Virus record (IMG/VR): IMGVR_UViG_3300032285_003957
Span: 32,001-96,000 of that record
DNA: 64,000 nucleotides
Source of the DNA: a virus
Taxonomy: Duplodnaviria > Caudoviricetes
Reading direction: 5' to 3' (one strand)
Under the pieces are notes generated by a model. The model did not search any database and was not told the DNA's origin. It saw nothing but the letters and a program-made list of their open reading frames with translations. Positions 24,723 to 38,446 of this stretch are shown in pieces (within the stretch, counting starts at the first letter, position 1; the number at the start of each line of letters is the position of its first letter). The position numbers were made by a program, and so were the translations under genes.

Positions 24723-25119
24723 TGGTGGAGATGACGAGACTCGAACTCGTGTCTTTCCTGCTCAACAATAAATGACTACACGTTTATTACAACATTGTTT
24801 CTCAATGTTCCGAAATATCAGGTTTGATATATGTGAGAACCCTACCTGCAAACAACTTGGTCTTAGAATTATTTTAAACGAGCTCTAACCTGTCACCCGT
24901 ATATTGGACTTCTGTTCCTAGGTTAATGTCCTAATCGACCCGTGCATAGGAGGCTAACTTAGTTAGGCTGCTACTTTAGAAGTTGCAAGAATACCTGCAA
25001 TTTCCATGTTGTTGTAAACGTTGCCGTTTGAATTTTTCCACCGTAGATTTAAGTCATAGATGAAGTCTGACTACGTGCCATCTATCCCTGATACCTGAAA
25101 TCAATTCCAAAGCATCCCC
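24723..25119 (-). ncRNA. ssrA: tmRNA; tag GNVYNNMEIAGILATSKVAA* at 25025-24963
   Basis: 5' GGGGATG pairs with 3' CATCTCC-ACCA with G3-U; GTTCGAGTC T-loop; internal tag ending AA-stop; 397 nt. Confidence 0.95.
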
Positions 25120-26999: not shown

Positions 27000-27807
27000 A
27001 AAACACTGAGAATACATGTCTTAACGAAACTCTTTAAAAGGATTATTTGATTCCCTTCGTTTCCACTAACTTTTGATTAGTAAGTTTCAGTCACGGCCAA
27101 TTAGATTAACCAATCCTTTCGCAATATCCTACTCTTTTAATACTCATTACTCATCAAATCTGCCGACCTGATTCAACCTTGCGGGTTTAGAGAACTTTCT
27201 CAAAAATCATATTGGGCTTGAGACCCTTTATGGCTGCGAACCCCTCGCAACTAAGTAGTGACCTATCGGACACTGCGGACGAACACTTTTTCTTGTTATA
27301 ATTTTAGTTGTTAAACCGCTATTAACAAAATTTAGTTTCCGAATTTGGGAAAGTAGTGGTTCGTCACCTAGCCAAGCCACCTTTTGAGCGACTCGATACT
27401 AAACTACTCTCTGTAACATCCCTGCTACCATATTTTTGGACTCCTTCAAAACTAAACCCTTGGTAGAGTTTAATAAAGGATGATAACAGCACCACCTGTT
27501 TTTCACCATACCTTTCGGTTTTAAGATTCCCATTATATTGAATCACGCAATGATATAGTCGGATAACTATACTTCTTACAATAACTCTATGGATTATTCT
27601 TATTGATGTTCCCATCTCAACCGAACAACTCGGATTGCTCGGTCATCAAACCACTTTCGCTACAGTGTTACCCTCACTACTTAAGGTTCAATGATATTCC
27701 ACTTGCCTACTCGAGCTCCATTACTGAAGCCGCAACTTACCCCAACCAAGGGTTTGTCACTTTATCCCACTTTCGTGGTTTATTTTAATCGACCATAGGC
27801 GGCCAAT
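27000..27807 (-). ncRNA. approximately 800-nt structured ncRNA, probably GOLLD-like
   Basis: no credible ORF, GC-enriched, many hairpins with GNRA loops, own promoter and terminator, next to a tRNA array; 3' hairpin GACA-UGUAUUCUCAG-UGUU resembles my recollection of the GOLLD 3' end. Confidence 0.6.
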
Positions 27808-27842
27808 ATTTTTAAATCAAAGAACTATTCTTGTTTCTTTTA

Positions 27843-27850
27843 CAAAGATA
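27843..27850 (-). promoter_or_regulatory. Bacteroidota-type -7 box (TATCTTTG) for the large ncRNA
   Basis: TAnnTTTG match. Confidence 0.7.
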
Positions 27851-27905
27851 TAAAAAATATTTCAAAAAAAGAAATGTTTTTTAAACTTTTTCTATTTTAT
27901 TTTTT

Positions 27906-28103
27906 TTAAGTTGTTTTTTTTGACGCAACTTTCTCACTTGTTTGTGATTTATAATTTGGATTCTTATAAAGTTTATATTCAGTTTTTGGTGCGAAAGCCC
28001 AATTACCTCCTTTAACTCTTAATTCCGCTTCATTATCGTCAGTTCTTAACATTTCACCGATTTCGTGTCCTTTACTTGCTTTGATTAATTTAATACATTT
28101 CAT
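27906..28103 (-). CDS. hypothetical protein
   Basis: 65-aa ORF; TATCTTTG at 28131-28138. Confidence 0.6.
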   Translation of the reverse strand: MKCIKLIKASKGHEIGEMLRTDDNEAELRVKGGNWAFAPKTEYKLYKNPNYKSQTSEKVASKKTT

Positions 28104-28162
28104 AGTTTACCTCCATGTTTTAGTTATAATCAAAGATACAAAATAAATTTCAAAAAACAAAA

Positions 28163-28624
28163 TTAAATCCTTACTAAATGATTTGCTGCGTATGTCATCA
28201 ACGCACCTAAATGTTTGTATCTAACTTTATAACCCATCCCTTCAACCATACCAACTGCTTGTCTTAAAACAGAATTAGATTTGAACTTAGGATCAGGATT
28301 TAAATCGATATCAATCCATTGAGGTTTTGGTAATCCATTTTCTTTTAGATATTCCGCAATTTCAATTGACTTCCAAACTTCCGCAAGCAATCTGTTCGGT
28401 GTATTTCTTTCCATAGGTTCGGTTTCACGCGTGCATAACACGTGAGCACCTTTACCTTTTACATAAAGAGCAATAACAACACCATAGATTGTTTTTTTAT
28501 TTCCATAACATTGGGAATCAGAGCCAATGAGAATTTCCACATTCTCTCTTGTTGCGACATACTCTCTTATGTAATCTATTACATTTGGAATTGGAGTTCC
28601 ATAGAGAGTTCTAAATTTTTTCAT
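28163..28624 (-). CDS. DUF458/RNase H-like family protein
   Basis: ILIGSDSQ, EVWKSIEIA, IDIDLN motifs. Confidence 0.75.
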   Translation of the reverse strand: MKKFRTLYGTPIPNVIDYIREYVATRENVEILIGSDSQCYGNKKTIYGVVIALYVKGKGAHVLCTRETEPMERNTPNRLLAEVWKSIEIAEYLKENGLPKPQWIDIDLNPDPKFKSNSVLRQAVGMVEGMGYKVRYKHLGALMTYAANHLVRI

Positions 28625-28653
28625 TACCTTTTCATTTTATTATAATTAGTTTG

Positions 28654-28825
28654 CTGTGGTAGCAGGAGTCGAACCATGCAGGTGGAGATTCGATTAGTAA
28701 CAAAGCGCTTGCAAGCCGGTGGTCTACCCCGATATTACTAATCTATTTCTTTGTCCACGCCCGGGAGACAACCGGGTGCGTTTGCCGAGGCCATAACAGA
28801 GACAGCCAATTTTCGCCATACCACA
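28654..28825 (-). ncRNA. 172-nt tRNA-like RNA with expanded D-loop and very large variable region
   Basis: TGTGGTA/TACCACA acceptor, GCG/CGC D-stem, CCCGG/CCGGG stem, GGTTCGACTCC T-arm. Confidence 0.7.
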
Positions 28826-28886
28826 ATATAAGGACCCAGTACCTCTTATGCTTTCACTCACCTGAGTCCAACGTGAGATAAGGTTG

Positions 28887-28976
28887 CAGAGAGTGAGGGG
28901 TTCGAACCCTCGCGCCGATTTAACTCGACCTAACAGTTTAGCAAACTGCCCCCTTCACCAACTTGGGTAACTCTCT
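28887..28976 (-). tRNA. tRNA-Ser(GCT)
   Basis: cloverleaf, loop TT-GCT-AA, long variable arm. Confidence 0.92.
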
Positions 28977-28977
28977 A

Positions 28978-29250
28978 TTAGTAGATGCTGTGTCTATCTT
29001 CTTCGTTTAATAACCCTTTACCAATATCAAACTTTTCAGCTCTTCTTTTTGCTTCTTCAGCTTCTTTAACCCAACGAATCCAAGTTAATGAAATATCAAT
29101 AGGTGCTAACACCCAAGCCATAACAATAACCATTATCGTGTCCAATTCTGCTGAATTTGAGGTTACACTTCCATCGTAGCGTTGTTTGTATTTACTAAAC
29201 AATTGATAAAAACAATACACAACGCAAATCAAATAATACGTAATTAACAT
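28978..29250 (-). CDS. small membrane protein (2 TM)
   Basis: start moved to ATG 29250 outside tRNA-Gln; two hydrophobic segments. Confidence 0.6.
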   Translation of the reverse strand: MLITYYLICVVYCFYQLFSKYKQRYDGSVTSNSAELDTIMVIVMAWVLAPIDISLTWIRWVKEAEEAKRRAEKFDIGKGLLNEEDRHSIY

Positions 29251-29265
29251 AAATAAAAATTTAAG

Positions 29266-29337
29266 TTGTCCCCCAGGGAATCGAACCCCACTTATCCGGA
29301 CCAAAACCGGATGTAATAACCGATATACGAGAGGACA
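29266..29337 (-). tRNA. tRNA-Gln(TTG)
   Basis: cloverleaf, TCCGG-TTTTGGT-CCGGA. Confidence 0.9.
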
Positions 29338-29416
29338 ATAATCTCAGGCATTCTACTTCCCGCAGCACGAAATTGTATCTTACTTAGCCCACCGTTAGCG
29401 GTATGGGAACCTGAGT

Positions 29417-29491
29417 TGGAGCAGATGAGAGGAATCGAACCTCCGTCTCCTACTTGGAAGGAAGGAGTAATGACCATTATACGACATCTGC
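29417..29491 (-). tRNA. tRNA-Gly(TCC), CCA encoded
   Basis: cloverleaf, loop CT-TCC-AA, U73. Confidence 0.92.
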
Positions 29492-29590
29492 ATTCATAGC
29501 AGTTATGTGAGCGCCCAACTCACAATACCACTACGTTTTAATGGATGAAAAACATCTGCTTTTCTTTCGGACTTCCATTGGAGTCCCATG

Positions 29591-29662
29591 AGCTCAGTAA
29601 CAGACTCGAACTGTTGTCTAATGATTACAAATCACTTGTTCTACCGACTGAACTAACCGAGC
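29591..29662 (-). tRNA. tRNA-Thr(TGT)
   Basis: cloverleaf, loop TT-TGT-AA. Confidence 0.9.
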
Positions 29663-29785
29663 AATTATTGGAACTTTAGAAGGTATTCCAACTGATGGTT
29701 TATGACTTTACCACACCACGATTCGCGAGCTGTAAGACCCCAATCATTGATACTCTTCTAACGCTTACACTTCAAGTATCTAGTG

Positions 29786-29858
29786 AGCGGAAGACCAGGC
29801 TCGAACTGGCCACCCCGACCTTGGCAAGGTCGTGCTCTACCGAATGAGCTACTTCCGC
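29786..29858 (-). tRNA. tRNA-Gly(GCC)
   Basis: canonical cloverleaf, CT-GCC-AA-type loop, U73. Confidence 0.95.
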
Positions 29859-29864
29859 TTGTTG

Positions 29865-29936
29865 TAGTCTCTGAGAATTTTGAAATCCCGACCCTCTCCA
29901 TGTAAGGGAGATGCTCTTCCTCTGAGCTAAGAGACT
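29865..29936 (-). tRNA. tRNA-Val(TAC), atypical T-arm
   Basis: loop CT-TAC-AT; T-arm GGGAT-TTCAAAA-TTCTC. Confidence 0.85.
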
Positions 29937-29937
29937 A

Positions 29938-30014
29938 TGGTGGACCAAACAGGGCTCGAACCTGTGACCTTGGCATTATGAGTGCCCTGCTCTAACCATC
30001 TGAGCTATAAGTCC
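29938..30014 (-). tRNA. tRNA(CAT), probably Ile2 (lysidine type), CCA encoded
   Basis: loop CT-CAT-AA, G1-C72; the cognate leader contains ATA, and other CAT tRNAs lie in the second array. Confidence 0.8.
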
Positions 30015-30021
30015 AATAAGG

Positions 30022-30127
30022 TGCCGAAGGAGGGATTTATACCCACACGCAGGTCATTTCGAACTCTGCTCCTTCTAGAATACAGCGCGTCTAACAGGTG
30101 GCCACCCGTCTATTCCGCCACTTCGGC
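30022..30127 (-). ncRNA. 106-nt Leu-type tRNA-like RNA with D-loop hairpin insertion and disrupted anticodon/T loops
   Basis: GCCGAAG/CTTCGGC acceptor, GCG/CGC D-stem, inserted GACGGGT-GGCC-ACCTGTT, T-loop TATAAAT. Confidence 0.65.
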
Positions 30128-30132
30128 ATGTG

Positions 30133-30215
30133 TGAGAGTGGACGGATTCGAACCGCCGAAGTCTAAGACTCCTGATTTACAGTCAGGTGCCAATTACCGC
30201 ATTGACAACACTCCC
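30133..30215 (-). tRNA. tRNA-Tyr(GTA)
   Basis: loop CT-GTA-AA, long variable arm. Confidence 0.9.
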
Positions 30216-30220
30216 ATTTG

Positions 30221-30301
30221 TGACCAAGGAGAGATTCGAACTCTCACGACTTACGTCATTGGTTCCTAAGACCAACGTGTCTACCGTTCCACCACTCGGC
30301 C
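30221..30301 (-). tRNA. tRNA-Leu(TAG)
   Basis: loop CT-TAG-GA, long variable arm, A73. Confidence 0.92.
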
Positions 30302-30308
30302 ATTGTTG

Positions 30309-30380
30309 CGCTGATGGAGAATTACGATATCTCAACCTATTGATTAACAGTCAATTGCTCTGCCGTTGAGCTACATCAGC
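30309..30380 (-). tRNA. tRNA-Asn(GTT), atypical T-arm
   Basis: loop CT-GTT-AA, G73; T-arm GAGAT-ATCGTAA-TTCTC. Confidence 0.85.
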
Positions 30381-30385
30381 TTTTG

Positions 30386-30459
30386 TTGGGAATGCAGGAT
30401 TCGAACCTACGGCCTCTTGGTCCCAAACCAAGCGCGATACCGGACTACGCTAATTCCCA
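30386..30459 (-). tRNA. tRNA-Pro(TGG)
   Basis: loop TT-TGG-GA. Confidence 0.92.
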
Positions 30460-30465
30460 TTTTAG

Positions 30466-30539
30466 TGATTCCGTTTGGATTCGAACCAAAGACCCACATC
30501 TTAGAAGGATGTTGCTCTATCCAACTGAGCTACGGAACC
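30466..30539 (-). tRNA. tRNA-Arg(TCT)
   Basis: loop CT-TCT-AA. Confidence 0.93.
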
Positions 30540-30540
30540 A

Positions 30541-30975
30541 TTATTTAATATTTTTTGCTCGATATGTTTCCGTTTGTGAATGACAATTAGGACATAACAT
30601 TCTTAAATTTTCTAATTTATGATTTGTTCGATTCCCATCGATATGGTCTAATTCCATATTTAATTTTTTACCATTCCATTCTTCAATGTCACATATAAAA
30701 CATTTGTTTTCGATTATTTTTTCTTTTAATAATCTATTTTTTAATTTGAATGTTTGGAAATGTGGATGTTTACCTTCCAATATTTCCTGTAAATCTACTT
30801 TAGGTGGGACAATCTTATTTGTTCCTTTTCCTGATTGATTCGTTACGTAACAACCAAATTTAATTGCATACTTTTTAAAAGTATTAAAATGTAAATCTAA
30901 TTTACTTGCTGCTTCAGCCATTGATTTAGATTCTTGACAGATTTTTATAAAATCGTTTTGATTAAAATGTTTCAT
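30541..30975 (-). CDS. HNH endonuclease inserted in the tRNA array
   Basis: CFIC, ELDHIDG, NLRMLCPNCHSQT; TATTTAT at 30980-30986. Confidence 0.9.
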   Translation of the reverse strand: MKHFNQNDFIKICQESKSMAEAASKLDLHFNTFKKYAIKFGCYVTNQSGKGTNKIVPPKVDLQEILEGKHPHFQTFKLKNRLLKEKIIENKCFICDIEEWNGKKLNMELDHIDGNRTNHKLENLRMLCPNCHSQTETYRAKNIK

Positions 30976-31031
30976 ATTAATAAATATCATACACTTTAGA
31001 AAAAACCATTTTAGTGTCTATCTTTTTCATG

Positions 31032-31116
31032 TACTTCCGACCAGAATCGAACTGGTACGAACTTTCAGTTCATAGCATTTTAAGTGCTACGTGTCTACCA
31101 GTTCCACCACGGAAGC
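31032..31116 (-). tRNA. tRNA-Leu(TAA)
   Basis: loop CT-TAA-AA, long variable arm. Confidence 0.93.
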
Positions 31117-31169
31117 GTTTTTTCCCAATATGTCAAAGAACAATACTAATATAAAAAATAAAATTCACT

Positions 31170-31208
31170 AAAACAAAAAACCCGAACTTTTTTAATTTGT
31201 TCGGGTTT
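31170..31208 (-). terminator. attenuator terminator ahead of tRNA array B
   Basis: AAACCCGAAC/GTTCGGGTTT stem followed by TTTGTTTT. Confidence 0.85.
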
Positions 31209-31230
31209 CAATATTCTAATTTAAATTATT

Positions 31231-31338
31231 TTAAATAAGTGTGTCCGAACTTAAAGCGCATGTAGGTTGCACAAGATAGCCATTACCATTTGTTAACGGT
31301 CTACTCGTAATCCCCAATATGTTATTTAAGTTCTTCAT
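31231..31338 (-). CDS. leader peptide B, 35 aa: MKNLNNILGITSRPLTNGNGYLVQPTCALSSDTLI
   Basis: manually translated; lies between promoter box and terminator; codons match array B tRNAs. Confidence 0.8.
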   Translation of the reverse strand: MKNLNNILGITSRPLTNGNGYLVQPTCALSSDTLI

Positions 31339-31356
31339 CGTTTTTATAAGTATAAG

Positions 31357-31364
31357 CAAATATA
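31357..31364 (-). promoter_or_regulatory. Bacteroidota-type -7 box (TATATTTG) for leader B/tRNA array B
   Basis: TAnnTTTG match 19 nt upstream of the leader ATG. Confidence 0.7.
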
Positions 31365-31405
31365 CAAAAAGTTTCAATAATAAAAAAATAATCATAAAAA
31401 TATTT

Positions 31406-31564
31406 TTACCAACGTTTCATTGGCGGTGGTGAAAATCGTGGTTGATAGTATCTGTGCACATGATACATTCCGTTCCATGGATGACGATGTGTATAAATTG
31501 CACGTTCGTAATAACATCCACTGAATGTCACTGCGATTAACAATAAGAATAATAACTTTTTCAT
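31406..31564 (-). CDS. small lipoprotein (52 aa)
   Basis: manually translated: MKKLLFLLLIAVTFSG-C lipobox; TATTTAT upstream. Confidence 0.65.
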   Translation of the reverse strand: MKKLLFLLLIAVTFSGCYYERAIYTHRHPWNGMYHVHRYYQPRFSPPPMKRW

Positions 31565-31578
31565 ATTAATAAATATTT

Positions 31579-32310
31579 TTAGTTTTTAACTAATTTAGTT
31601 CTTGATATAAAATTATAACTCTCTTCAAATGTTACAGGCTTTTCAATCGCACGTCTTTTTATATTAAGGACATATAACGCATATGAAAGTGCAGCACCTT
31701 CGCCATGACCATATATTGTTCTTCGATATAAATTCTTATCATATAATGATGCATATTCAAACACTGGTTTTATTTTTTCCAACTCATATTGAATTTTATC
31801 GTAATCTAATCCAACAGGGAAATAAAACAATTGTTCAAACATTGTTTCTAATTTTGATGGTTCGGTTCCTTCCAATGTGAGAAACTCAATTATTGGACGA
31901 GCCCATTTATCAACGTTTATGTCAGGTAGATATTTCCATGATTTCCATTCACCGTTAACATTAACGGGCCAAAAAGTCAAATATAAAACCTCATCAAAAC
32001 TTTCAAGTGTTCGATATTTTTCATCGCTTAAAAATACGTTTAGGCTATCACAATCAACATATGTAACATCAGTTTTTAATTCCTTAATTAATTTAAAACT
32101 AAAAAAGAATTTATCAAAATAGCTGAATATTTTTTTTTCGTATTGATATGTTGTGCAACCAACCCCTTCAAATTCTTGAGGTGTGTCTGTTAATATTCTA
32201 ACATCAAAATTGAATTCATTAACTAAACGCTTAACATTATCAATGCATTGACTTGCATATGATAAACCGTCATCGTCCACACCGACACATATTAATGCTA
32301 ATACTTTCAT
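31579..32310 (-). CDS. glycosyltransferase-like hypothetical protein (paralog 2)
   Basis: FSYFDKFFFSFKLIKEL, YVDCD, GHGEG shared with the adjacent paralog. Confidence 0.65.
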   Translation of the reverse strand: MKVLALICVGVDDDGLSYASQCIDNVKRLVNEFNFDVRILTDTPQEFEGVGCTTYQYEKKIFSYFDKFFFSFKLIKELKTDVTYVDCDSLNVFLSDEKYRTLESFDEVLYLTFWPVNVNGEWKSWKYLPDINVDKWARPIIEFLTLEGTEPSKLETMFEQLFYFPVGLDYDKIQYELEKIKPVFEYASLYDKNLYRRTIYGHGEGAALSYALYVLNIKRRAIEKPVTFEESYNFISRTKLVKN

Positions 32311-32312
32311 GT

Positions 32313-33053
32313 TTAAATCAATGTTTTACTTTTGTCTTGGAATATGACGTCATATCTTTCTCTAAATAACATTTGATCCTCAAGTTTTTCTTTACCAATA
32401 TTATTAACATCTAAAGCGTATGAAAGAGCTAAACCTTCACCATGTCCAAATATTAATCGGTTATTTAAATTTATAGAATACAACGACATATATTCAAACA
32501 CAGGTTTTATTTTTTCCAATTCATATTGAACATTATCGTAGTCCAAACCAACGGGAAAATACAATAAACGTTCGTGCATTGTCTCTAACTTAGATATATC
32601 ATATTTTTCCATTTCAAAAAATTCCAATAACGGATGTGACCAAATATCAAACTTAAAATCTTTTAAAAATTGATATGTCACCCATTCTTTGCTATTTTTA
32701 ACGGACCAATATGTTAAATATAACACCTTATTTTGACTTTCTAAATTTCTAAATTTTTCAATTTTAAGTAAATAATCGATACAATCACAATCAATGTAAG
32801 TTACCGATTTATTTAACTCCTTAATTAACTTAAATGAAAAAAAGAACTTATCAAAGTAGCTGAATATTTTCTTATCGTATTTGTAAATTGAACATCCAAG
32901 ACCTTCAAATTCTTTTGGTGTGTCAGTTAATAATCTAACATCGAAACCAAAAACATCAATCAATTGCTTTACATTCTCAACACATTGGGTGTAGTATGGA
33001 ACACCTTTGTAATCATTCCCAACAGATATAATTGCAACTGTTTTCATCTTCAT
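32313..33053 (-). CDS. glycosyltransferase-like hypothetical protein (paralog 1)
   Basis: tandem paralog with YIDCD DxD motif. Confidence 0.65.
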   Translation of the reverse strand: MKMKTVAIISVGNDYKGVPYYTQCVENVKQLIDVFGFDVRLLTDTPKEFEGLGCSIYKYDKKIFSYFDKFFFSFKLIKELNKSVTYIDCDCIDYLLKIEKFRNLESQNKVLYLTYWSVKNSKEWVTYQFLKDFKFDIWSHPLLEFFEMEKYDISKLETMHERLLYFPVGLDYDNVQYELEKIKPVFEYMSLYSINLNNRLIFGHGEGLALSYALDVNNIGKEKLEDQMLFRERYDVIFQDKSKTLI

Positions 33054-33056
33054 ATG

Positions 33057-33128
33057 TACTCCCAACGGGATTCGAACCCGTGACTCATCCGTGAAAGGGA
33101 CGTGACTTAACCGCTTGTCGATGGGAGC
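33057..33128 (-). tRNA. tRNA-Glu(TTC)
   Basis: loop CT-TTC-AC. Confidence 0.92.
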
Positions 33129-33330
33129 GTTTCGGGACGAGTCAGGTTAACTCTTGTGTCCCTACTTAATAGTTGTGTTTAGAGGGAAGTCCAAAACACG
33201 GTATTCACCAAAAGGGACTTTACTTTCGATTATCGCTGAAACTTTTAACTACGCTCAATGTATCTTTTAATTTGTTTCGTTTAACGTCCAAACAAATGTC
33301 CCAGTTGAGCGGGACAAAAAAGACGACCTG

Positions 33331-33462
33331 TGGGTTAGGAGTGGGAATCGAACCCATAACGATGCGTAATCTTCTACTTCAACTCCTTGTACTTCAGAGT
33401 CCGTCACCGCGTCCCGTATGTAGCCTCCATACGGTGCATCTTCCATTTCTGCTACCTACCCA
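33331..33462 (-). ncRNA. 132-nt tRNA-like RNA with long variable region
   Basis: TGGGTAGG/CCTAACCCA ends, GCA/TGC D-stem, CCGTATG/CATACGG stem, GGGTTCGATTCCC T-arm. Confidence 0.65.
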
Positions 33463-33467
33463 AATTT

Positions 33468-33610
33468 GCAATCAAGATAGGATTTGAACCTATAAGCCGT
33501 TTTCGTGTTCTTCCATTCCACTCAACGACATACCTATGTGATCCTGCGGGAAGAAATCGTCCATCTTGCGATGCCTACATAGGTGTGTATCACACTACAC
33601 TTCTTGATTG
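33468..33610 (-). ncRNA. 143-nt tRNA-like RNA with expanded anticodon arm
   Basis: CAATCAAGA/TCTTGATTG ends, ATAGG-TTCAAAT-CCTAT T-arm, ACCTATGT/ACATAGGT stem. Confidence 0.65.
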
Positions 33611-33613
33611 TTG

Positions 33614-33701
33614 CGGAGAGAGTAGGATTCGAACCCACGGACCCCTTTCGAGATCTTCAGTTTTCAAGACTGACGCAATCGGCCAACTCTGCCATCTCTC
33701 C
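33614..33701 (-). tRNA. tRNA-Ser(TGA)
   Basis: loop CT-TGA-AA, long variable arm, G73. Confidence 0.95.
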
Positions 33702-33923
33702 AAATTCCCCACATTGAGATTACTTGTGAGTAGTTATTTCGGTTTTCTATTTCTTAAAAACCTGTGAGGCATCCCTCATTAAAACATCCGACCTAATACT
33801 TGGGGGAGAGTAGGTTCACAATCCTTATTCCCAACGAGTAGTTCTTAAGATGACACTACTAACGTCTAATCCATTGTTAAATGAGTCTTGGATCAAAGAC
33901 TGCTGAGTATCTCTTACTCATTG

Positions 33924-33997
33924 CGGAACGGACGAGACTCGAACTCGCGACCCCTACAGTGACAGTGTAGTATTCTAACCAACTGAACTACCGCTCC
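33924..33997 (-). tRNA. tRNA-Asp(GTC)
   Basis: loop CT-GTC-AC, G73. Confidence 0.95.
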
Positions 33998-34083
33998 GTG
34001 TTTGATTCTAACTCACCTTAAATTGCACCATCCGAGTCACTGCTCTGGTTGACAAAGTCCTCGTTGAGTTAGTCTCAAAATTT

Positions 34084-34203
34084 TTACTTTTTTCTACGCT
34101 GTCTTAAAGCTGAACCTGCAACAGATTTGTAAGCTTTTGTTGTTTTCTTACTTCTCAATGCGCTACTTGCTTTCTTAGCAACTCTTCTTGACGTTCTTGC
34201 CAT
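34084..34203 (-). CDS. 39-aa highly basic peptide MARTSRRVAKKASSALRSKKTTKAYKSVAGSALRQRRKK
   Basis: manually translated, clean ATG-TAA between tRNAs. Confidence 0.6.
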   Translation of the reverse strand: MARTSRRVAKKASSALRSKKTTKAYKSVAGSALRQRRKK

Positions 34204-34218
34204 AGTTAAAAGTTTTAG

Positions 34219-34290
34219 TTGCGAGAGAGGGAATCGAACCCCCGACCTAAAGGTTATGAGCCTTCCGAGCTACCGCTGCTCTATCTCGCG
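34219..34290 (-). tRNA. initiator tRNA-fMet(CAT)
   Basis: C1-A72 mismatch, loop CT-CAT-AA. Confidence 0.9.
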
Positions 34291-34302
34291 ATGTTTGTTT
34301 CA

Positions 34303-34310
34303 CAAAGATA
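34303..34310 (-). promoter_or_regulatory. internal Bacteroidota-type promoter (TTTG-N18-TATCTTTG) before tRNA-fMet
   Basis: both -33 and -7 elements present. Confidence 0.7.
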
Positions 34311-34352
34311 AGAAATATTAATGATATACAAAAATATTTCAAATCTTTTTTG

Positions 34353-34420
34353 TTGCGGGGCCAGGAGTCGAACCTGGAACACTCGGCTTATGAGGCCGGT
34401 GGGAAACCATTCTCCCCGCA
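34353..34420 (-). tRNA. tRNA-Met(CAT) with reduced D-arm (68 nt)
   Basis: good acceptor, anticodon and T arms; D-arm only TGG-TTTC-CCA. Confidence 0.7.
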
Positions 34421-34425
34421 ATGTG

Positions 34426-34497
34426 GGTGTATGGACGGTATCGAACCGTCTTCCCGAGCTCCACAAACTCGTGCTTCACCTTAAAGCTTCAAACACC
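34426..34497 (-). tRNA. tRNA-His(GTG)
   Basis: loop TT-GTG-GA; G-1 opposite C73. Confidence 0.9.
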
Positions 34498-34564
34498 GTG
34501 TGTGGAATCGAACCACTTTCCCATCTCCACGACAGGCGATACGTCCATTATCCTTTACCGGGTG
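34494..34564 (-). pseudogene. degenerate tRNA-like remnant (His-GTG-like)
   Basis: intact GTGG-TTCGATT-CCAC T-arm but poor acceptor and anticodon stems. Confidence 0.35.
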
Positions 34565-34635
34565 AGTCAAGTACTGGAGTCGAACCAATCTAAAAAGTTT
34601 TGCAGACTTTCACCTAACCGCTCGGCCAACCTGAC
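34565..34635 (-). tRNA. tRNA-Cys(GCA)
   Basis: loop CT-GCA-AA, U73. Confidence 0.92.
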
Positions 34636-34694
34636 TTGTTTGTTCACTTTTTTCATCTGTTCACGGTCCGTGAACAATCAAATTTTGTGAACAG

Positions 34695-34766
34695 AGGTCT
34701 CTAAAGGATTTGAACCTTTACTAAAACATTCGTAGTGTTTCGTGCTATCCGTTACACCAAGAGACC
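34695..34766 (-). tRNA. tRNA-Arg(ACG)
   Basis: loop CT-ACG-AA. Confidence 0.9.
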
Positions 34767-34769
34767 TAT

Positions 34770-34958
34770 TTACTTCCATTGAGTCTTCCTTTGTTTTTTC
34801 CACGTTCTAAATTCTCTCCATTTGTGATTTGGTAGGTTACCATGATTAAAATTCCAACCATAATCCCAATCAAGTTCATATTTGTCCGGTGCTGTAACAA
34901 TTTTATACTCTTTGTTATGAGTGGTTTTTTGGCTTACCCTGCCTTTTACTGGTTTCAT
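34770..34958 (-). CDS. small basic protein ending WKKQRKTQWK
   Basis: 62-aa ORF preceded by repeat copy 1. Confidence 0.65.
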   Translation of the reverse strand: MKPVKGRVSQKTTHNKEYKIVTAPDKYELDWDYGWNFNHGNLPNHKWREFRTWKKQRKTQWK

Positions 34959-34961
34959 GCT

Positions 34962-34999
34962 ATTAGGTTTACCTAATGCATATCAAATTCTTTTTTCAT
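34962..34999 (-). repeat. approximately 40-bp direct repeat, copy 1 (hairpin ATTAGG-TAAA-CCTAAT)
   Basis: near-identical to 35178-35217. Confidence 0.8.
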
Positions 35000-35000
35000 T

Positions 35001-35174
35001 TTATTTCCATTTAGTTTTTCTGTGTTGTTTCCAACACTTATCAATTTTTTTTCTTGAACGATTGCAACCTTTATTAGGTCCACAGATAGGACAAGATAAT
35101 TCTCTACTCAACCAAACACGTTTAAATGTTTTACGGTCCGTAATTGTTTTGATGTTTCTTCTTGCTTTTGACAT
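35001..35174 (-). CDS. 57-aa basic Cys-rich protein ending WKQHRKTKWK
   Basis: manually translated; CPIC..C..C; C-terminus paralogous to 34770-34958. Confidence 0.65.
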   Translation of the reverse strand: MSKARRNIKTITDRKTFKRVWLSRELSCPICGPNKGCNRSRKKIDKCWKQHRKTKWK

Positions 35175-35177
35175 ATG

Positions 35178-35217
35178 ATTAGGATTTTACCTAATGCATG
35201 TCGAATTCTTTTTTCAT
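35178..35217 (-). repeat. approximately 40-bp direct repeat, copy 2
   Basis: tgaaaaaagaattcgacatgcattaggtaaaatcctaat. Confidence 0.8.
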
Positions 35218-35219
35218 GG

Positions 35220-35462
35220 TTACTTATATTTTCTTATTGTTTTAAAAACTTTTGTTATATCGGTCAATTCCATTACTTGGTCGTTTCTAATTGGATAAAA
35301 TGCAATTGTAAAACCGTGGTTTCCAAGATAGAAATCTTCCTTCATTATTCTATTGCCATTTACCTTTTCAAGATATATCCAAGGATAGTTACCAACCAAT
35401 TCAACGTTGATTCCTATCTTCTTTAATCTTGGGACTAACCTGTTTATTACGTTGTCTTCCAT
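35220..35462 (-). CDS. hypothetical protein
   Basis: start moved to ATG 35462 outside tRNA-Trp. Confidence 0.65.
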   Translation of the reverse strand: MEDNVINRLVPRLKKIGINVELVGNYPWIYLEKVNGNRIMKEDFYLGNHGFTIAFYPIRNDQVMELTDITKVFKTIRKYK

Positions 35463-35476
35463 AACTTTATTTTTAG

Positions 35477-35547
35477 CACGGGTGGAGAGATTCGAACTCC
35501 CATCGATGGTTTTGGAGACCATAATTCTGCCGTTGAACTACACCCGC
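35477..35547 (-). tRNA. tRNA-Trp(CCA)
   Basis: loop CT-CCA-AA, G73. Confidence 0.93.
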
Positions 35548-35554
35548 GTATTTG

Positions 35555-35629
35555 TGACCCCTTTGGGACTCGAACCCAAAACCCACTGGTTAAAAGCCAG
35601 TTACTCTAATCCGATTGAGCTAAGAGGTC
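35555..35629 (-). tRNA. tRNA-Lys(TTT)
   Basis: loop CT-TTT-AA. Confidence 0.93.
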
Positions 35630-35638
35630 TTACTCTTG

Positions 35639-35764
35639 TCACTTTCCATAGTTGTTGTTTTTAATTTGTTCAAATAACTTATTATGTCTTATCTTTTTAT
35701 CTTCTTGCATCTTCTTTATCAATGCAATAAAATCTTTGCTTGCTTTTACTTTAATCGTTTTCAT
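35639..35764 (-). CDS. 41-aa basic hypothetical peptide
   Basis: manually translated: MKTIKVKASKDFIALIKKMQED... Confidence 0.45.
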   Translation of the reverse strand: MKTIKVKASKDFIALIKKMQEDKKIRHNKLFEQIKNNNYGK

Positions 35765-35778
35765 AAAATACCTTTTAG

Positions 35779-35851
35779 TGGAAATGGTTGGTTTCGACCC
35801 AACTCCTGAAGATTTTCAGTCTTCCGCTTCTACCAAGTTAGCTTCATTTCC
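35779..35851 (-). tRNA. tRNA-Phe(GAA)
   Basis: loop CT-GAA-AA; T-loop GTCGAAA. Confidence 0.9.
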
Positions 35852-35856
35852 TATTG

Positions 35857-35929
35857 TTCTTAGAGATGGGTTCGAACCATCAACCTTCCGCGTATCAGGC
35901 GGATGCTCTCACCATTGAGCTACCTAAGA
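35857..35929 (-). tRNA. tRNA-Ile(GAT)
   Basis: loop CT-GAT-AC. Confidence 0.92.
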
Positions 35930-35934
35930 ATATG

Positions 35935-36007
35935 TGGAGTAAGTGGAACTCGAATCCACAACCTCAAGAATGCAAATCTTGTGCTCATCCGCTAGAGCTT
36001 TTACCCC
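35935..36007 (-). tRNA. tRNA-Ala(TGC)
   Basis: loop TT-TGC-AT, G3-U70. Confidence 0.92.
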
Positions 36008-36009
36008 AT

Positions 36010-36046
36010 AAAACAAAAAACCCCGAGATTTTTAAGTCTCAGGGTT
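36010..36046 (-). terminator. attenuator terminator ahead of tRNA array A
   Basis: AACCCTGAGA/TCTCGGGGTT stem (U-G wobble fits the minus strand) followed by TTTTGTTTT. Confidence 0.85.
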
Positions 36047-36068
36047 CTTCAATATTGTTAGTTAAAAA

Positions 36069-36167
36069 TTACCAACCACTTGCTTCACTGAGACTATTGG
36101 ACATAGCACGCTCATCCGCCCATTTTGAACAGATAATAAACGACATTGTATGTTTTGTTTGTCTCAT
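36069..36167 (-). CDS. leader peptide A, 32 aa: MRQTKHTMSFIICSKWADERAMSNSLSEASGW
   Basis: manually translated; lies between promoter box and terminator; codons match array A tRNAs. Confidence 0.8.
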   Translation of the reverse strand: MRQTKHTMSFIICSKWADERAMSNSLSEASGW

Positions 36168-36194
36168 CGAAGTTTTTTTTAATTTAATCTTTTA

Positions 36195-36202
36195 CAAAGA
36201 TA
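36195..36202 (-). promoter_or_regulatory. Bacteroidota-type -7 box (TATCTTTG) for leader A/tRNA array A
   Basis: TAnnTTTG match. Confidence 0.7.
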
Positions 36203-36290
36203 ACAATAAGTATCCGAAAAAACAAGAAAAGTTCAAAATATTTTTTTTCTTAAAATAGAATATAGAGATTGCCTAATGATATTTATCAGT

Positions 36291-36788
36291 ATGACAAAAA
36301 TATTGAAGGTATCTCTCCTACCTTTATTCATGCTGTTTATGGGCCAAACCCACGCCCAAAAAGTATATCTTGATAAGGTAGAGAACAAAGTTGTAATGGG
36401 TAAAATGGCCGGTAACCGTAATCTTGGTTTCGGTTGTAAAAACATTTTCTTAGAAATTTTACAGGACAAAAATTATGATATTACCGAAACTGTGGCAGAC
36501 GCTGACATGGTATTTAAGGCTGATATTATGTATTTTGATGTAAACAGAACAAAAAGAAATGTGTCTGTATTCCATTCCGATGTGGAAGAGACTTTGGTTG
36601 TAATCAAGGGGTATCTCTATGACAAAAGTGGTAAAAAAATTAAAGAGGCTGTTGCAGAAGAGTCAAGTTCAGAAATATCCACATCAACACTTATAACAGA
36701 TGAAGGAAGTAGCTCCATAAATCAACAAGCTTTATCGCAAGCCATTAAAAAAACTTGCGTTACATTAATAAATAAAATTTTTAAATAA
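36291..36788 (+). CDS. secreted protein (signal peptide), possibly CsgG/LptE-like fold
   Basis: signal peptide ending THA-Q; TATTTAT at 36280. Confidence 0.6.
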   Translation: MTKILKVSLLPLFMLFMGQTHAQKVYLDKVENKVVMGKMAGNRNLGFGCKNIFLEILQDKNYDITETVADADMVFKADIMYFDVNRTKRNVSVFHSDVEETLVVIKGYLYDKSGKKIKEAVAEESSSEISTSTLITDEGSSSINQQALSQAIKKTCVTLINKIFK

Positions 36789-36790
36789 AC

Positions 36791-38446
36791 ATGAAAAAAA
36801 TAATAAATTTAATTGTATTAACAACATTAATACCATTCATTTCATTTGGCCAATTAACTGTAAACCAAACAGTAACCCCAACAACAGGGTTAAAAGTTGG
36901 TGATACCGTTTCGGTAAAGTATACTGTGGCAAGAGGAACTACGACACCTCGTTATTTTTGGTTAAGATACCAATATAATAACAAAGCTTTAGCTTATGTT
37001 TCAACAACATTCTCACAAGGAACTTCAGTTCAAACATATTACACAAACTGGTCTTCTTATAAATTCACAGCAAATGCAAATAAAGATGCTACCGATTTGT
37101 ATGAGCAATATAAATTAACACCATGGGCGTATACAACCAATGCTGATTGGAATGTTGGTCAGTTAACAGTTCAAAGAACTGACGCAGCAATTAATGGAGA
37201 CATTGCAACTCAAAAATATGTAATCAAAGATTTAGGTGATTATACAAACATCCATAAAATAGATTTATCCTATTCAATTGATGGAACAGGTGCTAATATT
37301 AGCCCAATCACAACTAATCCTGGTACAATGTCTTTATCAAACGTTGTTGGTAACACATCTCAATTTAAAGTAAGAGTTTTATTCCCAACAGGATACGATA
37401 TCACTTCTCATAGTGTGTCTTTATTACCATTAAAAACAACAGGTGAGGTTGATTGGACCGCAAGAGCCATTGCAACTAAACCATTGGATGCAAGTGGTGA
37501 AGCCATTTTTACAACGGAGGCTAAAGTAGGTGACACGTTTGCTGTATTTGTAAATGCGGCATTACAGAAAACATTTATGAATAACATCATAACAGTATCA
37601 GACGCTTATAAAGCATTCTTAGGTGTTTCCCAAACAGATATCAATGGTAACGCAACTTACTTTACATATCCTTCATTAGAGAAGAAAATTGGTTTAATTA
37701 CAAACGGAAAAACAGCATTTAGCGAAAGCGACTCATACAATTTATTTGCAAATGTTATGGGTATTGATGTTAGTTCTGTTGCAATGATTCCATCAAATGC
37801 TGCACCCGTAAATGGTGTGGTTAACTTCAAATGGTATAATGGTTTATTAAATCAAAGTTGGTTAGACGGCGTTCCAACATATAAAACAAAAGTAACATCA
37901 TCAAATCAAGCGGTTGATATGGTATTTGCATGGGGCGGTGATTTAGACTGGTCTCATTCATCTTCACCAACAGAAATTGCATCAAGAATTTCAAGTGGTA
38001 ATTACGCTAACTCGGTTAACCCATCAAACGGAACCATCAAAACCATGTCTTTAACAACTATGTCATATACACCAACAATAGAAAAAGCAACATTAGGTTT
38101 AGCTTCAACAATTGTTAATGGTAAAGTTGTATTAACAGGAACTTTAACTAAAGATGGTTTAGCAGGTTTAGAAGTTATTTTACAATATGATAACACAAAA
38201 TTAACATTTGATAATATTGCGTTTGATGCGGGTGCAAGTGTAACTAACTTTTCAACAAACACAGATGGTAGATTAACATTTGGTTCTATGGATCAAACAA
38301 AAACTGCAAGAATTAAAATAGGAACACCATATAAATTAACATTTACACCAAAAGAAACATTAACAAATACAGCGGGATTATTCTACACAGTTTTAGCTGA
38401 CGCTGTTGATGGAAATGGAAATAAAATCAACTTAACGGTTGAATAA
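36791..38446 (+). CDS. secreted protein with cohesin-like domains and a degenerate dockerin-like segment
   Basis: signal peptide; LEVILQYDNTKLTF..LTFGSMD; ITVSDAYKAF. Confidence 0.6.
   Translation: MKKIINLIVLTTLIPFISFGQLTVNQTVTPTTGLKVGDTVSVKYTVARGTTTPRYFWLRYQYNNKALAYVSTTFSQGTSVQTYYTNWSSYKFTANANKDATDLYEQYKLTPWAYTTNADWNVGQLTVQRTDAAINGDIATQKYVIKDLGDYTNIHKIDLSYSIDGTGANISPITTNPGTMSLSNVVGNTSQFKVRVLFPTGYDITSHSVSLLPLKTTGEVDWTARAIATKPLDASGEAIFTTEAKVGDTFAVFVNAALQKTFMNNIITVSDAYKAFLGVSQTDINGNATYFTYPSLEKKIGLITNGKTAFSESDSYNLFANVMGIDVSSVAMIPSNAAPVNGVVNFKWYNGLLNQSWLDGVPTYKTKVTSSNQAVDMVFAWGGDLDWSHSSSPTEIASRISSGNYANSVNPSNGTIKTMSLTTMSYTPTIEKATLGLASTIVNGKVVLTGTLTKDGLAGLEVILQYDNTKLTFDNIAFDAGASVTNFSTNTDGRLTFGSMDQTKTARIKIGTPYKLTFTPKETLTNTAGLFYTVLADAVDGNGNKINLTVE

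Follow-up and report, generated by a model that had tools for sequence, protein, structure and literature searches.

We analysed a 64,000-nt window of a tailed phage genome (positions 32,001 to 96,000 of IMG/VR virus record IMGVR_UViG_3300032285_003957; Caudoviricetes), in which the tRNA genes form two arrays, A and B, each preceded by a short leader open reading frame (ORF) and an intrinsic terminator. Unless another locus is named, coordinates are positions in this window. The phage is a giant one, with a genome of 234,116 bp on a single contig and a G+C content of 33.5%. Its 26 tRNA genes all lie on the minus strand between 28886 and 36007; 25 were detected by ARAGORN and the 26th (anticodon CAT, 34353-34420) by Rfam. 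Read along the minus strand, the locus begins with the promoter box TATCTTTG, leader A, its terminator and array A, whose first gene, tRNA-Ala, starts 3 nt past the U-tract of terminator A. After array A come three protein genes, the promoter box TATATTTG, leader B and its terminator, and then a conserved 12-nt motif, array B, a gene for an RNaseH-like protein (PF04308), a GOLLD RNA and a transfer-messenger RNA (tmRNA). The features are collected in Table 1. The first-pass annotation had described two arrays, each behind a TAnnTTTG box, a short ORF and a terminator, and this arrangement was recovered in full, with the two boxes placed as the -7 elements of the leader promoters. The promoter of leader A we take to be of Bacteroidota type, judging by the consensus of Bacteroidota promoters.

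Under ordinary wobble rules each sense codon can be assigned to a tRNA of exactly one array, and labelled in this way the two leaders read as lists of the tRNAs encoded behind them. A recount gave exactly the numbers claimed earlier: 18 own-array codons among codons 5-23 of leader A and 23 among codons 3-26 of leader B, and either leader has 16 own-array codons in a row. It had also been claimed that every tRNA of each array is represented in its leader, and this is so for the 12 decoder species of array A as well as for the 13 of array B. The division reaches the level of isoacceptors, again as proposed before. Leader A has CGT for Arg, TCN for Ser and ATY for Ile, whereas leader B has AGA, AGT and ATA, respectively. 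The last of these assignments depends on the CAT tRNA of array B. It aligns over its full length with the E. coli tRNA-Ile that has a CAT anticodon (a PGAP call; 76.6%), which points to an Ile2-type tRNA and makes the ATA codon of leader B a true match.

The coverage does not depend on the choice of a codon window. When whole ORFs were compared with genome codon usage it was still significant, a random ORF of 31 codons covering the 12 species of array A with P = 2.8e-4 and one of 34 codons the 13 species of array B with P = 4.3e-3. The whole genome has, in six frames, 1235 ATG ORFs of 25-45 codons; apart from leader A just one of these covers all A species, and leader B alone covers all B species. 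The whole-ORF 2x2 table of leader against array gave a Fisher p of 1.6e-4. In addition, the layout of AATATTGAA followed by a hairpin and GGT(5-8)GTTTT occurs twice in 234 kb, both times at the leaders. In this phage, the match between leader codons and array content is far beyond chance.

Leader codons and array content among relatives

Relatives were collected through the neighbouring RNaseH-like gene, which gave 40 IMG/VR loci and 80 metagenome loci, mostly from freshwater. Among INPHARED/GenBank phages no close relative was found either by DNA or by the RNaseH-like protein, and an exact-motif scan of IMG/VR for AATATTGAA...GGGTTTTTTGTTTT returned three chance hits without tRNAs. The loci show three layouts. 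The first is that of the phage studied here, with two arrays behind leaders of A type and B type. In the second, a single leader precedes one long array whose genes are in a different order (L029-L042). These single leaders have 38-53 codons, contain 19-20 kinds of amino acid and cover 21-22 of the 22-24 species of their array, all of them ahead of the antiterminator segment; random ORFs of equal length reach such diversity with P of ~0.001-0.03 each. In the third layout the arrays are reduced and the leader ORF is decayed or absent. Altogether, leader ORFs of 29-53 codons have been kept open in about 40 distinct units of three leader types, leader A in 14 distinct lineages and leader B in 19, and they vary more at the third codon position than at positions 1 and 2. 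The C-terminal tails of single and A-type leaders are homologous, which suggests that the family is old.

If the leaders list the tRNAs of their arrays, codon content should follow the arrays when tRNAs are gained, lost or moved, and this expectation, expressed in the first-pass annotation, was borne out. As the core of a leader we took codon 2 and all codons after it up to the antiterminator segment, which pairs with the terminator arm. In 33 of 33 distinct A/B units, 100% of the own-array tRNA species have a codon in the core, and core purity is 0.83-0.86 for the own array versus 0.21-0.28 for the other one. To take the shared A/B split out of the comparison, arrays were shuffled only within a leader type; for A as well as for B, none of 100,000 permutations scored as high as the true pairing. 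Some species belong to an array in certain lineages and not in others, and for these the leader has the codon whenever the tRNA is in the array (87/87 for A type and 124/124 for B type); where the tRNA is not in the array, the codon is still there in 13 of 39 and 18 of 56 cases, respectively. The isoacceptor split is also seen across cores: with A cores given first and B cores second, the codon counts are 35/0 and 10/20 for Ser TCN/AGY, 13/0 and 1/18 for Arg CGN/AGR, and 31/4 and 2/22 for Ile ATY/ATA.

Reciprocal moves are the clearest instances of this tracking. The Gln tRNA belongs to array A in L023, whose genome is complete at 310 kb; here leader B has lost its Q, reading GVLP where all others read GVQP, and leader A has gained one, reading HIQ where others read HTM, so that its codons 2-26 are all own-array. 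L095 encodes its Asp and Glu tRNAs in the B-type array. Its leader A is without D and E (WADER has become WTAIRH), and its leader B has gained D, E and E; the core Leu-TTR and Arg-AGR codons of leader B have gone together with the tRNAs that read them. The clade of L106, L107 and L112 has the Val tRNA in array A, with one to two additional Val codons in leader A and no core Val in leader B. L125 has a block of another composition, with Ser-TGA, Gln, Pro, Phe, Asn, Val, Ile, Ser-GCT and His, and its leader is made up of these residues alone and covers nine of nine. The peptides themselves drift. Over 19 columns of the A cores we counted 33 amino-acid-changing codon states, 31 of which are decoded by the carrier's own array. 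That the peptide changes yet the codons stay own-array indicates selection on the codons rather than on the peptide, unlike what is expected of a functional micro-protein. Judged from these alignments, the leaders are a real, conserved regulatory unit that co-evolves with array content; the conservation and the co-evolution are themselves direct results of the computation.

The arrays of the relatives have some further peculiarities. A CTA tRNA that would read amber codons (labelled Pyl by ARAGORN) lies about 5 kb downstream of the arrays in L019 (15029-15100), L020, L101, L120 and L125 (13910-13981). A tRNA-Ile(TAT) stands beside the CAT tRNA in the B array in L106, L107, L127, L101, L105 and L120. 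Most tRNAs of L125 occur in pairs. Between terminator A and tRNA-Ala, 60-90 nt are inserted in L006 (4867-4955), L011 (3144-3233) and L025 (4677-4735), and the insert holds an inverted repeat of the TTTTGGC...GCCAAAA type.

RNA architecture and transcription of the arrays

Both leaders fold better than their shuffled versions, with z-scores of the minimum free energy (MFE) of -5.0 for leader A and -5.15 for leader B. In the MFE structure of each full leader, the region of the start codon (segment 1) is paired with segment 2, and segments 3 and 4 form the terminator. Segment 2 lies inside the ORF and is a near-copy of the terminator 3' arm. Its complementarity to the terminator 5' arm had been pointed out before, and it could be located in both leaders (Table 1). 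The 1:2 duplexes of the relatives range from -6 to -16 kcal/mol, and the terminators of all units consist of a GC-rich hairpin of -15 to -23 kcal/mol with a U-tract. The place of segment 2 is fixed within each type (codons 25-27 in A, 28-32 in B and 32-49 in single leaders), whereas its sequence changes together with the terminator arm, in at least six variants. The compensatory pairs of segment 2 and terminator include CCCTGAGA/GTCTCAG, CCTCGGAA/GTTCCGAG, CCTCGAGA/GTCTCGAGG, CCTCTAACT/GTTAGAGG and CCCTGACT/GTCAGGG. Own-array species first appear at least 4-5 codons ahead of segment 2, which matches the requirement of a ribosome footprint. When the transcript was cut before the 3' arm and a ribosome was placed with its A site at codons 8-20, the MFE structure formed the 2:3 pairing; in the same cut transcript without a ribosome, segment 2 was locked in 1:2 and the terminator 5' arm was free. 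The anatomy and the covariation are observed. The complete 1:2, 2:3 and 3:4 geometry agrees with the attenuator-type architecture suggested earlier, and the predicted layout is that of a classical four-segment attenuator. An Rfam search of 27500-37500 at E up to 0.1 gave tRNA hits and noise, with no T-box and no leader family.

Where does transcription of the tRNAs start? The first tRNA follows the U-tract at a distance of 3-22 nt in A-type and single-leader units. A gap of this size leaves no space for a promoter, so that in these units the first tRNA can be made only by read-through of the terminator. In B-type units the spacer is longer (40-150 nt) and carries the motif GTTCTTTGACAT 12-19 nt ahead of the first tRNA. 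There are 43 distinct contexts in which the motif, GTTCTTTGACAT(ATTGGGAA) in the phage studied here, precedes a tRNA by 12-19 nt, and in other lineages it is placed after the first tRNA behind the attenuator. In a scan of prokaryotic genomes it was found mainly in Bacteroidota, and an identical extended motif lies between the spacer tRNAs and the 23S rRNA gene in seven of seven Bacteroidota rRNA (rrn) operons examined. This position is that of the rrn spacer boxA. We read the motif as a putative antitermination site for polymerases that have passed the attenuator; it also resembles the E. coli boxA. Such a site would probably render an escaped polymerase resistant to termination across the multi-kilobase array, and its Bacteroidota rrn type points to a Bacteroidota host. 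A reading of GTTCTTTGACAT as a phage promoter was considered and rejected: it is unique in the genome, follows tRNAs without a promoter box and matches the rrn spacer element.

The surroundings of the arrays are those of a translation island, and the GOLLD RNA and the tmRNA remain neighbours of the arrays in every relative examined. For the 243- and 250-amino-acid paralogues encoded between the arrays no Pfam match was found, and a search of IMG/VR with the 243-amino-acid protein as query gave no relatives. Array A contains two copies of an eight-codon mini-ORF, MKKEFDMH-stop (35191-35217 and 34973-34999, minus strand), each directly preceding a small basic ORF; the two basic ORFs are paralogous (35174-35001 and 34958-34770). 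All eight codons of these mini-ORFs are decoded by array-A tRNAs. Between tRNA-Cys and tRNA-His lies a 67-nt tRNA-like filler (34497-34563, minus strand), called Thr-CGT by relaxed ARAGORN and not called by Rfam, and a non-coding gap of 484 nt (33129-33612, minus strand) separates tRNA-Ser(TGA) from tRNA-Glu. At the end of array B, the 232 nt between tRNA-Ser(GCT) and the RNaseH-like gene (28654-28885, minus strand) have an end resembling a T arm and acceptor. Relaxed ARAGORN reports odd tRNAs here and at the corresponding place in relatives; this stretch gave no Rfam hit, and the fold, computed on 247 nt following tRNA-Ser(GCT), was not better than those of shuffled sequences.

Table 1. Positions of the leaders, switch elements, tRNA arrays and neighbouring genes in the window
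Feature	Position	Strand	Details
Leader A promoter	36195..36225	minus	-33 TTG 36225-36223; -7 box TATCTTTG 36202-36195; spacing 20 nt; presumably Bacteroidota type
Segment 1, attenuator A	36160..36173	minus	start-codon region; pairs with segment 2, 1:2 duplex -14.6 kcal/mol
Leader A ORF	36069..36167	minus	32 codons; checklist core codons 5-23 (36155-36099), reads KHTMSFIICSKWADERAMS
Segment 2, attenuator A	36088..36095	minus	AGTCTCAG, codons 25-27; complementary to terminator 5' arm
Intrinsic terminator A (segments 3 and 4) with U-tract	36010..36051	minus	
tRNA array A	33056..36007	minus	13 tRNAs: Ala, Ile-GAT, Phe, Lys, Trp, Arg-ACG, Cys, His, Met, fMet-like, Asp, Ser-TGA, Glu; ARAGORN and Rfam; small ORFs interspersed
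Paralogous gene, 250 amino acids	32313-33065	minus	between the arrays; in tandem with the next
Paralogous gene, 243 amino acids	31579-32310	minus	between the arrays
Lipoprotein-like ORF, 52 amino acids	31406-31564		upstream of leader B; conserved there in relatives
Leader B promoter, -7 box	31357..31364	minus	TATATTTG; conserved in alignment of 12 B-type units
Leader B ORF	31231..31338	minus	35 codons; checklist core codons 3-26 (31332-31261), reads NLNNILGITSRPLTNGNGYLVQPT
Segment 1, attenuator B	31324..31334	minus	AGAACTTAAAT; pairs with segment 2
Segment 2, attenuator B	31245..31251	minus	AGTTCGG, codons 30-32; complementary to terminator 5' arm CCCGAAC
AATATTGAA A-tract and intrinsic terminator B	31170..31215	minus	5' arm 31205-31199; 3' arm 31187-31181; U-tract 31180-31170
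Degenerate copy of TAnnTTTG box	31146..31153	minus	TATATTAG; perfect in many relatives; possible weak internal promoter here
Putative rrn-type boxA-like element	31130..31141	minus	GTTCTTTGACAT(ATTGGGAA); 14 nt before tRNA-Leu(TAA); single occurrence in genome
tRNA array B	28886..31116	minus	13 tRNAs: Leu-TAA, Arg-TCT, Pro, Asn, Leu-TAG, Tyr, Ile2-type CAT, Val, Gly-GCC, Thr, Gly-TCC, Gln, Ser-GCT; ARAGORN and Rfam
HNH endonuclease gene	30541-30990	minus	within array B, between tRNA-Leu(TAA) and tRNA-Arg(TCT); related to HNH genes of T4-like phages
GOLLD RNA	27003-27411	minus	302 bits; just downstream of the arrays
tmRNA	24723-25119	minus	just downstream of the arrays

A candidate multi-input attenuator and its alternatives

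We consider a multi-input leader-peptide attenuator of phage tRNA operons the best explanation of this locus and a quite probable one: each array would lie behind a transcription attenuator worked by ribosomes and would be expressed, as an operon, by read-through. In the mechanism that we infer, a promoter of Bacteroidota type would start transcription about 15-25 nt ahead of the leader ATG, and the leader would be translated. With no ribosome on the transcript, segments 1 and 2 would pair, the 3:4 terminator would form and RNA polymerase would halt before the first tRNA. A ribosome that reaches the tail of the ORF would cover segment 2 or allow 1:2 to re-form, and termination would follow likewise. 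If, however, a ribosome stalls in the core, between segments 1 and 2, these would be kept apart, and the free segment 2 could capture the 5' arm of the terminator while the 3' arm is still to be transcribed, so that the polymerase would enter the array. It would then meet the boxA-like site, which in some relatives comes after the first tRNA. Slow decoding of any listed species would switch on the whole block. Since the core lists at least one codon per array species, the unit would behave as an OR gate, and since its products are the tRNAs themselves, the switch would act as a negative-feedback homeostat. In other words, the phage probably makes a tRNA set only while ribosomes read the codons of that set slowly.

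A number of observations weigh against such an attenuator. Most tRNA species are represented by 1-3 codons and not by classical runs, and stalling at single codons may be weak. The tracking is one-sided, in that some leaders retain codons for tRNAs outside their own array, Thr above all. Codons 4 and 7 of leader A in this phage are Thr, though the Thr tRNA is outside array A; one Thr codon is found in several B leaders, and TCA in some B leaders; and the L011 leader keeps F and K codons after those tRNAs were lost. The permutation and Fisher statistics ignore phylogeny, the number of independent events being about 5-7. As for the RNA, equilibrium folding with a ribosome footprint gives the terminator in every case, which means that the choice of antitermination must be kinetic. 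A- and B-type units have only short 2:3 helices, of 6-8 bp and -7 to -10 kcal/mol, and against codon-shuffled controls the 2:3 duplex reached significance in the single-leader type but not in A or B units taken individually. Finally, a consensus TATATTTG box, a possible internal promoter, stands 19 nt past the U-tract TTTG in many B-type spacers; the phage studied here has the degenerate copy of it, and it is absent from the B spacers of L016 and L095. A box standing between terminator and boxA suggests that array B may also have transcription independent of the attenuator.

These points have to be set against other readings of the same data. The most serious one accepts the switch and changes its input: the leaders would sense amino-acid starvation or the general status of aminoacylation or translation, and the arrays would belong to a stress programme rather than to product feedback or counter-defence. 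A stalled ribosome cannot distinguish a missing tRNA from an uncharged one, as is established for the trp and his attenuators, some leader codons lack a matching tRNA in the array, and the single-array phages list all 20 amino acids, like a general gauge of translation. A starvation sensor, however, would have no reason to list exactly the species of its own array, and it fails to explain why codons follow tRNAs that have moved and why synonymous families are split by isoacceptor. We consider it unlikely. A further reading makes the unit a device that couples tRNA synthesis to active translation or to the timing of infection, the codon lists merely slowing ribosomes uniformly. The geometry does predict termination when no ribosome loads, and the units lie in a translation island with tmRNA, GOLLD RNA and boxA. 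Nonetheless, uniform slowing would need no complete array-specific coverage and predicts no co-variation of codons and tRNAs, which makes this proposal very improbable.

The leaders might, alternatively, be ordinary micro-protein genes with terminators of their own, with the arrays transcribed from separate promoters and the codon match due to coincidence or shared ancestry. It is true that both ORFs are conserved as ORFs and that many relatives have the promoter-like box downstream of the B terminator. Against this stand the very low chance probabilities of the codon match, the reciprocal moves of codons and tRNAs, a gap too small for a promoter ahead of the first tRNA of A-type and single-leader units, and the co-variation with the terminator of a segment 2 that lies within the ORF. 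Moreover, the peptide is not conserved, having 33 changing states in 19 columns, yet the replacements are own-array. We regard this possibility as hardly credible.

Relation to known attenuators and significance

The multi-input attenuator would be a new variation on the known mechanism of leader-peptide attenuation. Enterobacterial leaders can be multivalent: those of ilvGMEDA and ilvBN contain Ile, Leu and Val codons and that of thr contains Thr and Ile codons, and the family also includes trpL, hisL, pheL and leuL. The phage units share with them a short leader with regulatory codons, an intrinsic terminator, mutually exclusive 1:2, 2:3 and 3:4 pairings and, presumably, readout by a stalled ribosome. 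In both, the terminator is thermodynamically stronger than the antiterminator, hence a kinetic choice, which is known for the trp attenuator. However, the phage units would regulate tRNA genes and not biosynthetic enzymes, and instead of runs for 1-3 amino acids their leaders list 12-13 species (20 amino acids in the single-array relatives), mostly with 1-3 codons per species and split by isoacceptor. They have no sequence homology to enterobacterial leaders, are phage-borne and belong to Bacteroidota-type hosts without Shine-Dalgarno-led initiation. In E. coli, the pheST operon for phenylalanyl-tRNA synthetase is controlled by leader-peptide attenuation tied to the supply of charged tRNA. It resembles the phage units in that such attenuation is applied to a component of the decoding apparatus, and it differs in responding to a single amino acid, making a protein product and being a cellular system. 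T-box riboswitches likewise set a decision between terminator and antiterminator by the state of a specific tRNA, yet they bind uncharged tRNA directly, with no ribosome, and the phage leaders gave no T-box match in Rfam. As for rrn antitermination, in which boxA acts with NusB/NusE, the element GTTCTTTGACATATTGGGAA behind terminator B is nearly identical to the Bacteroidota 16S-23S spacer element. The phage motif, a putative site of this kind, differs in lying in a tRNA operon, downstream of a regulated terminator.

To our knowledge, the regulation of phage tRNA genes is largely unknown, and in full-text searches of the literature we came upon no account of tRNA genes controlled by a leader peptide. 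The near-complete tRNA sets of jumbo phages are a matter of debate, being attributed either to the matching of codon usage or to escape from host defences that cleave tRNAs. One may speculate that the role of the attenuators is counter-defence against anticodon nucleases. A much wider view, which we find possible and rather doubtful as a whole, is that of a self-contained homeostat of decoding capacity in phages that have large tRNA sets. The pangram or half-pangram leader would sense each limiting phage tRNA codon by codon, a kinetic attenuator would be combined with a hijacked rrn boxA that takes the polymerase to the end of the array, and the tRNA pool would be replaced by induction when anticodon nucleases or host shut-off deplete it; the units would then form a widespread and hitherto undescribed regulatory class, with leaders evolving in lock-step with the tRNA genes.

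If the attenuator reading is true, these units would be the first attenuators regulating tRNA genes and the first multi-input version, with 12 to 20+ inputs, of textbook attenuation. It predicts a function for many unannotated mini-ORFs adjoining phage tRNA arrays, and it would provide a compact natural part by which transcription could be made to depend on how available any chosen tRNAs are. That leaders and arrays evolve in lock-step would also be an unusually clean case of regulatory co-evolution, one that can be read from sequence alone.

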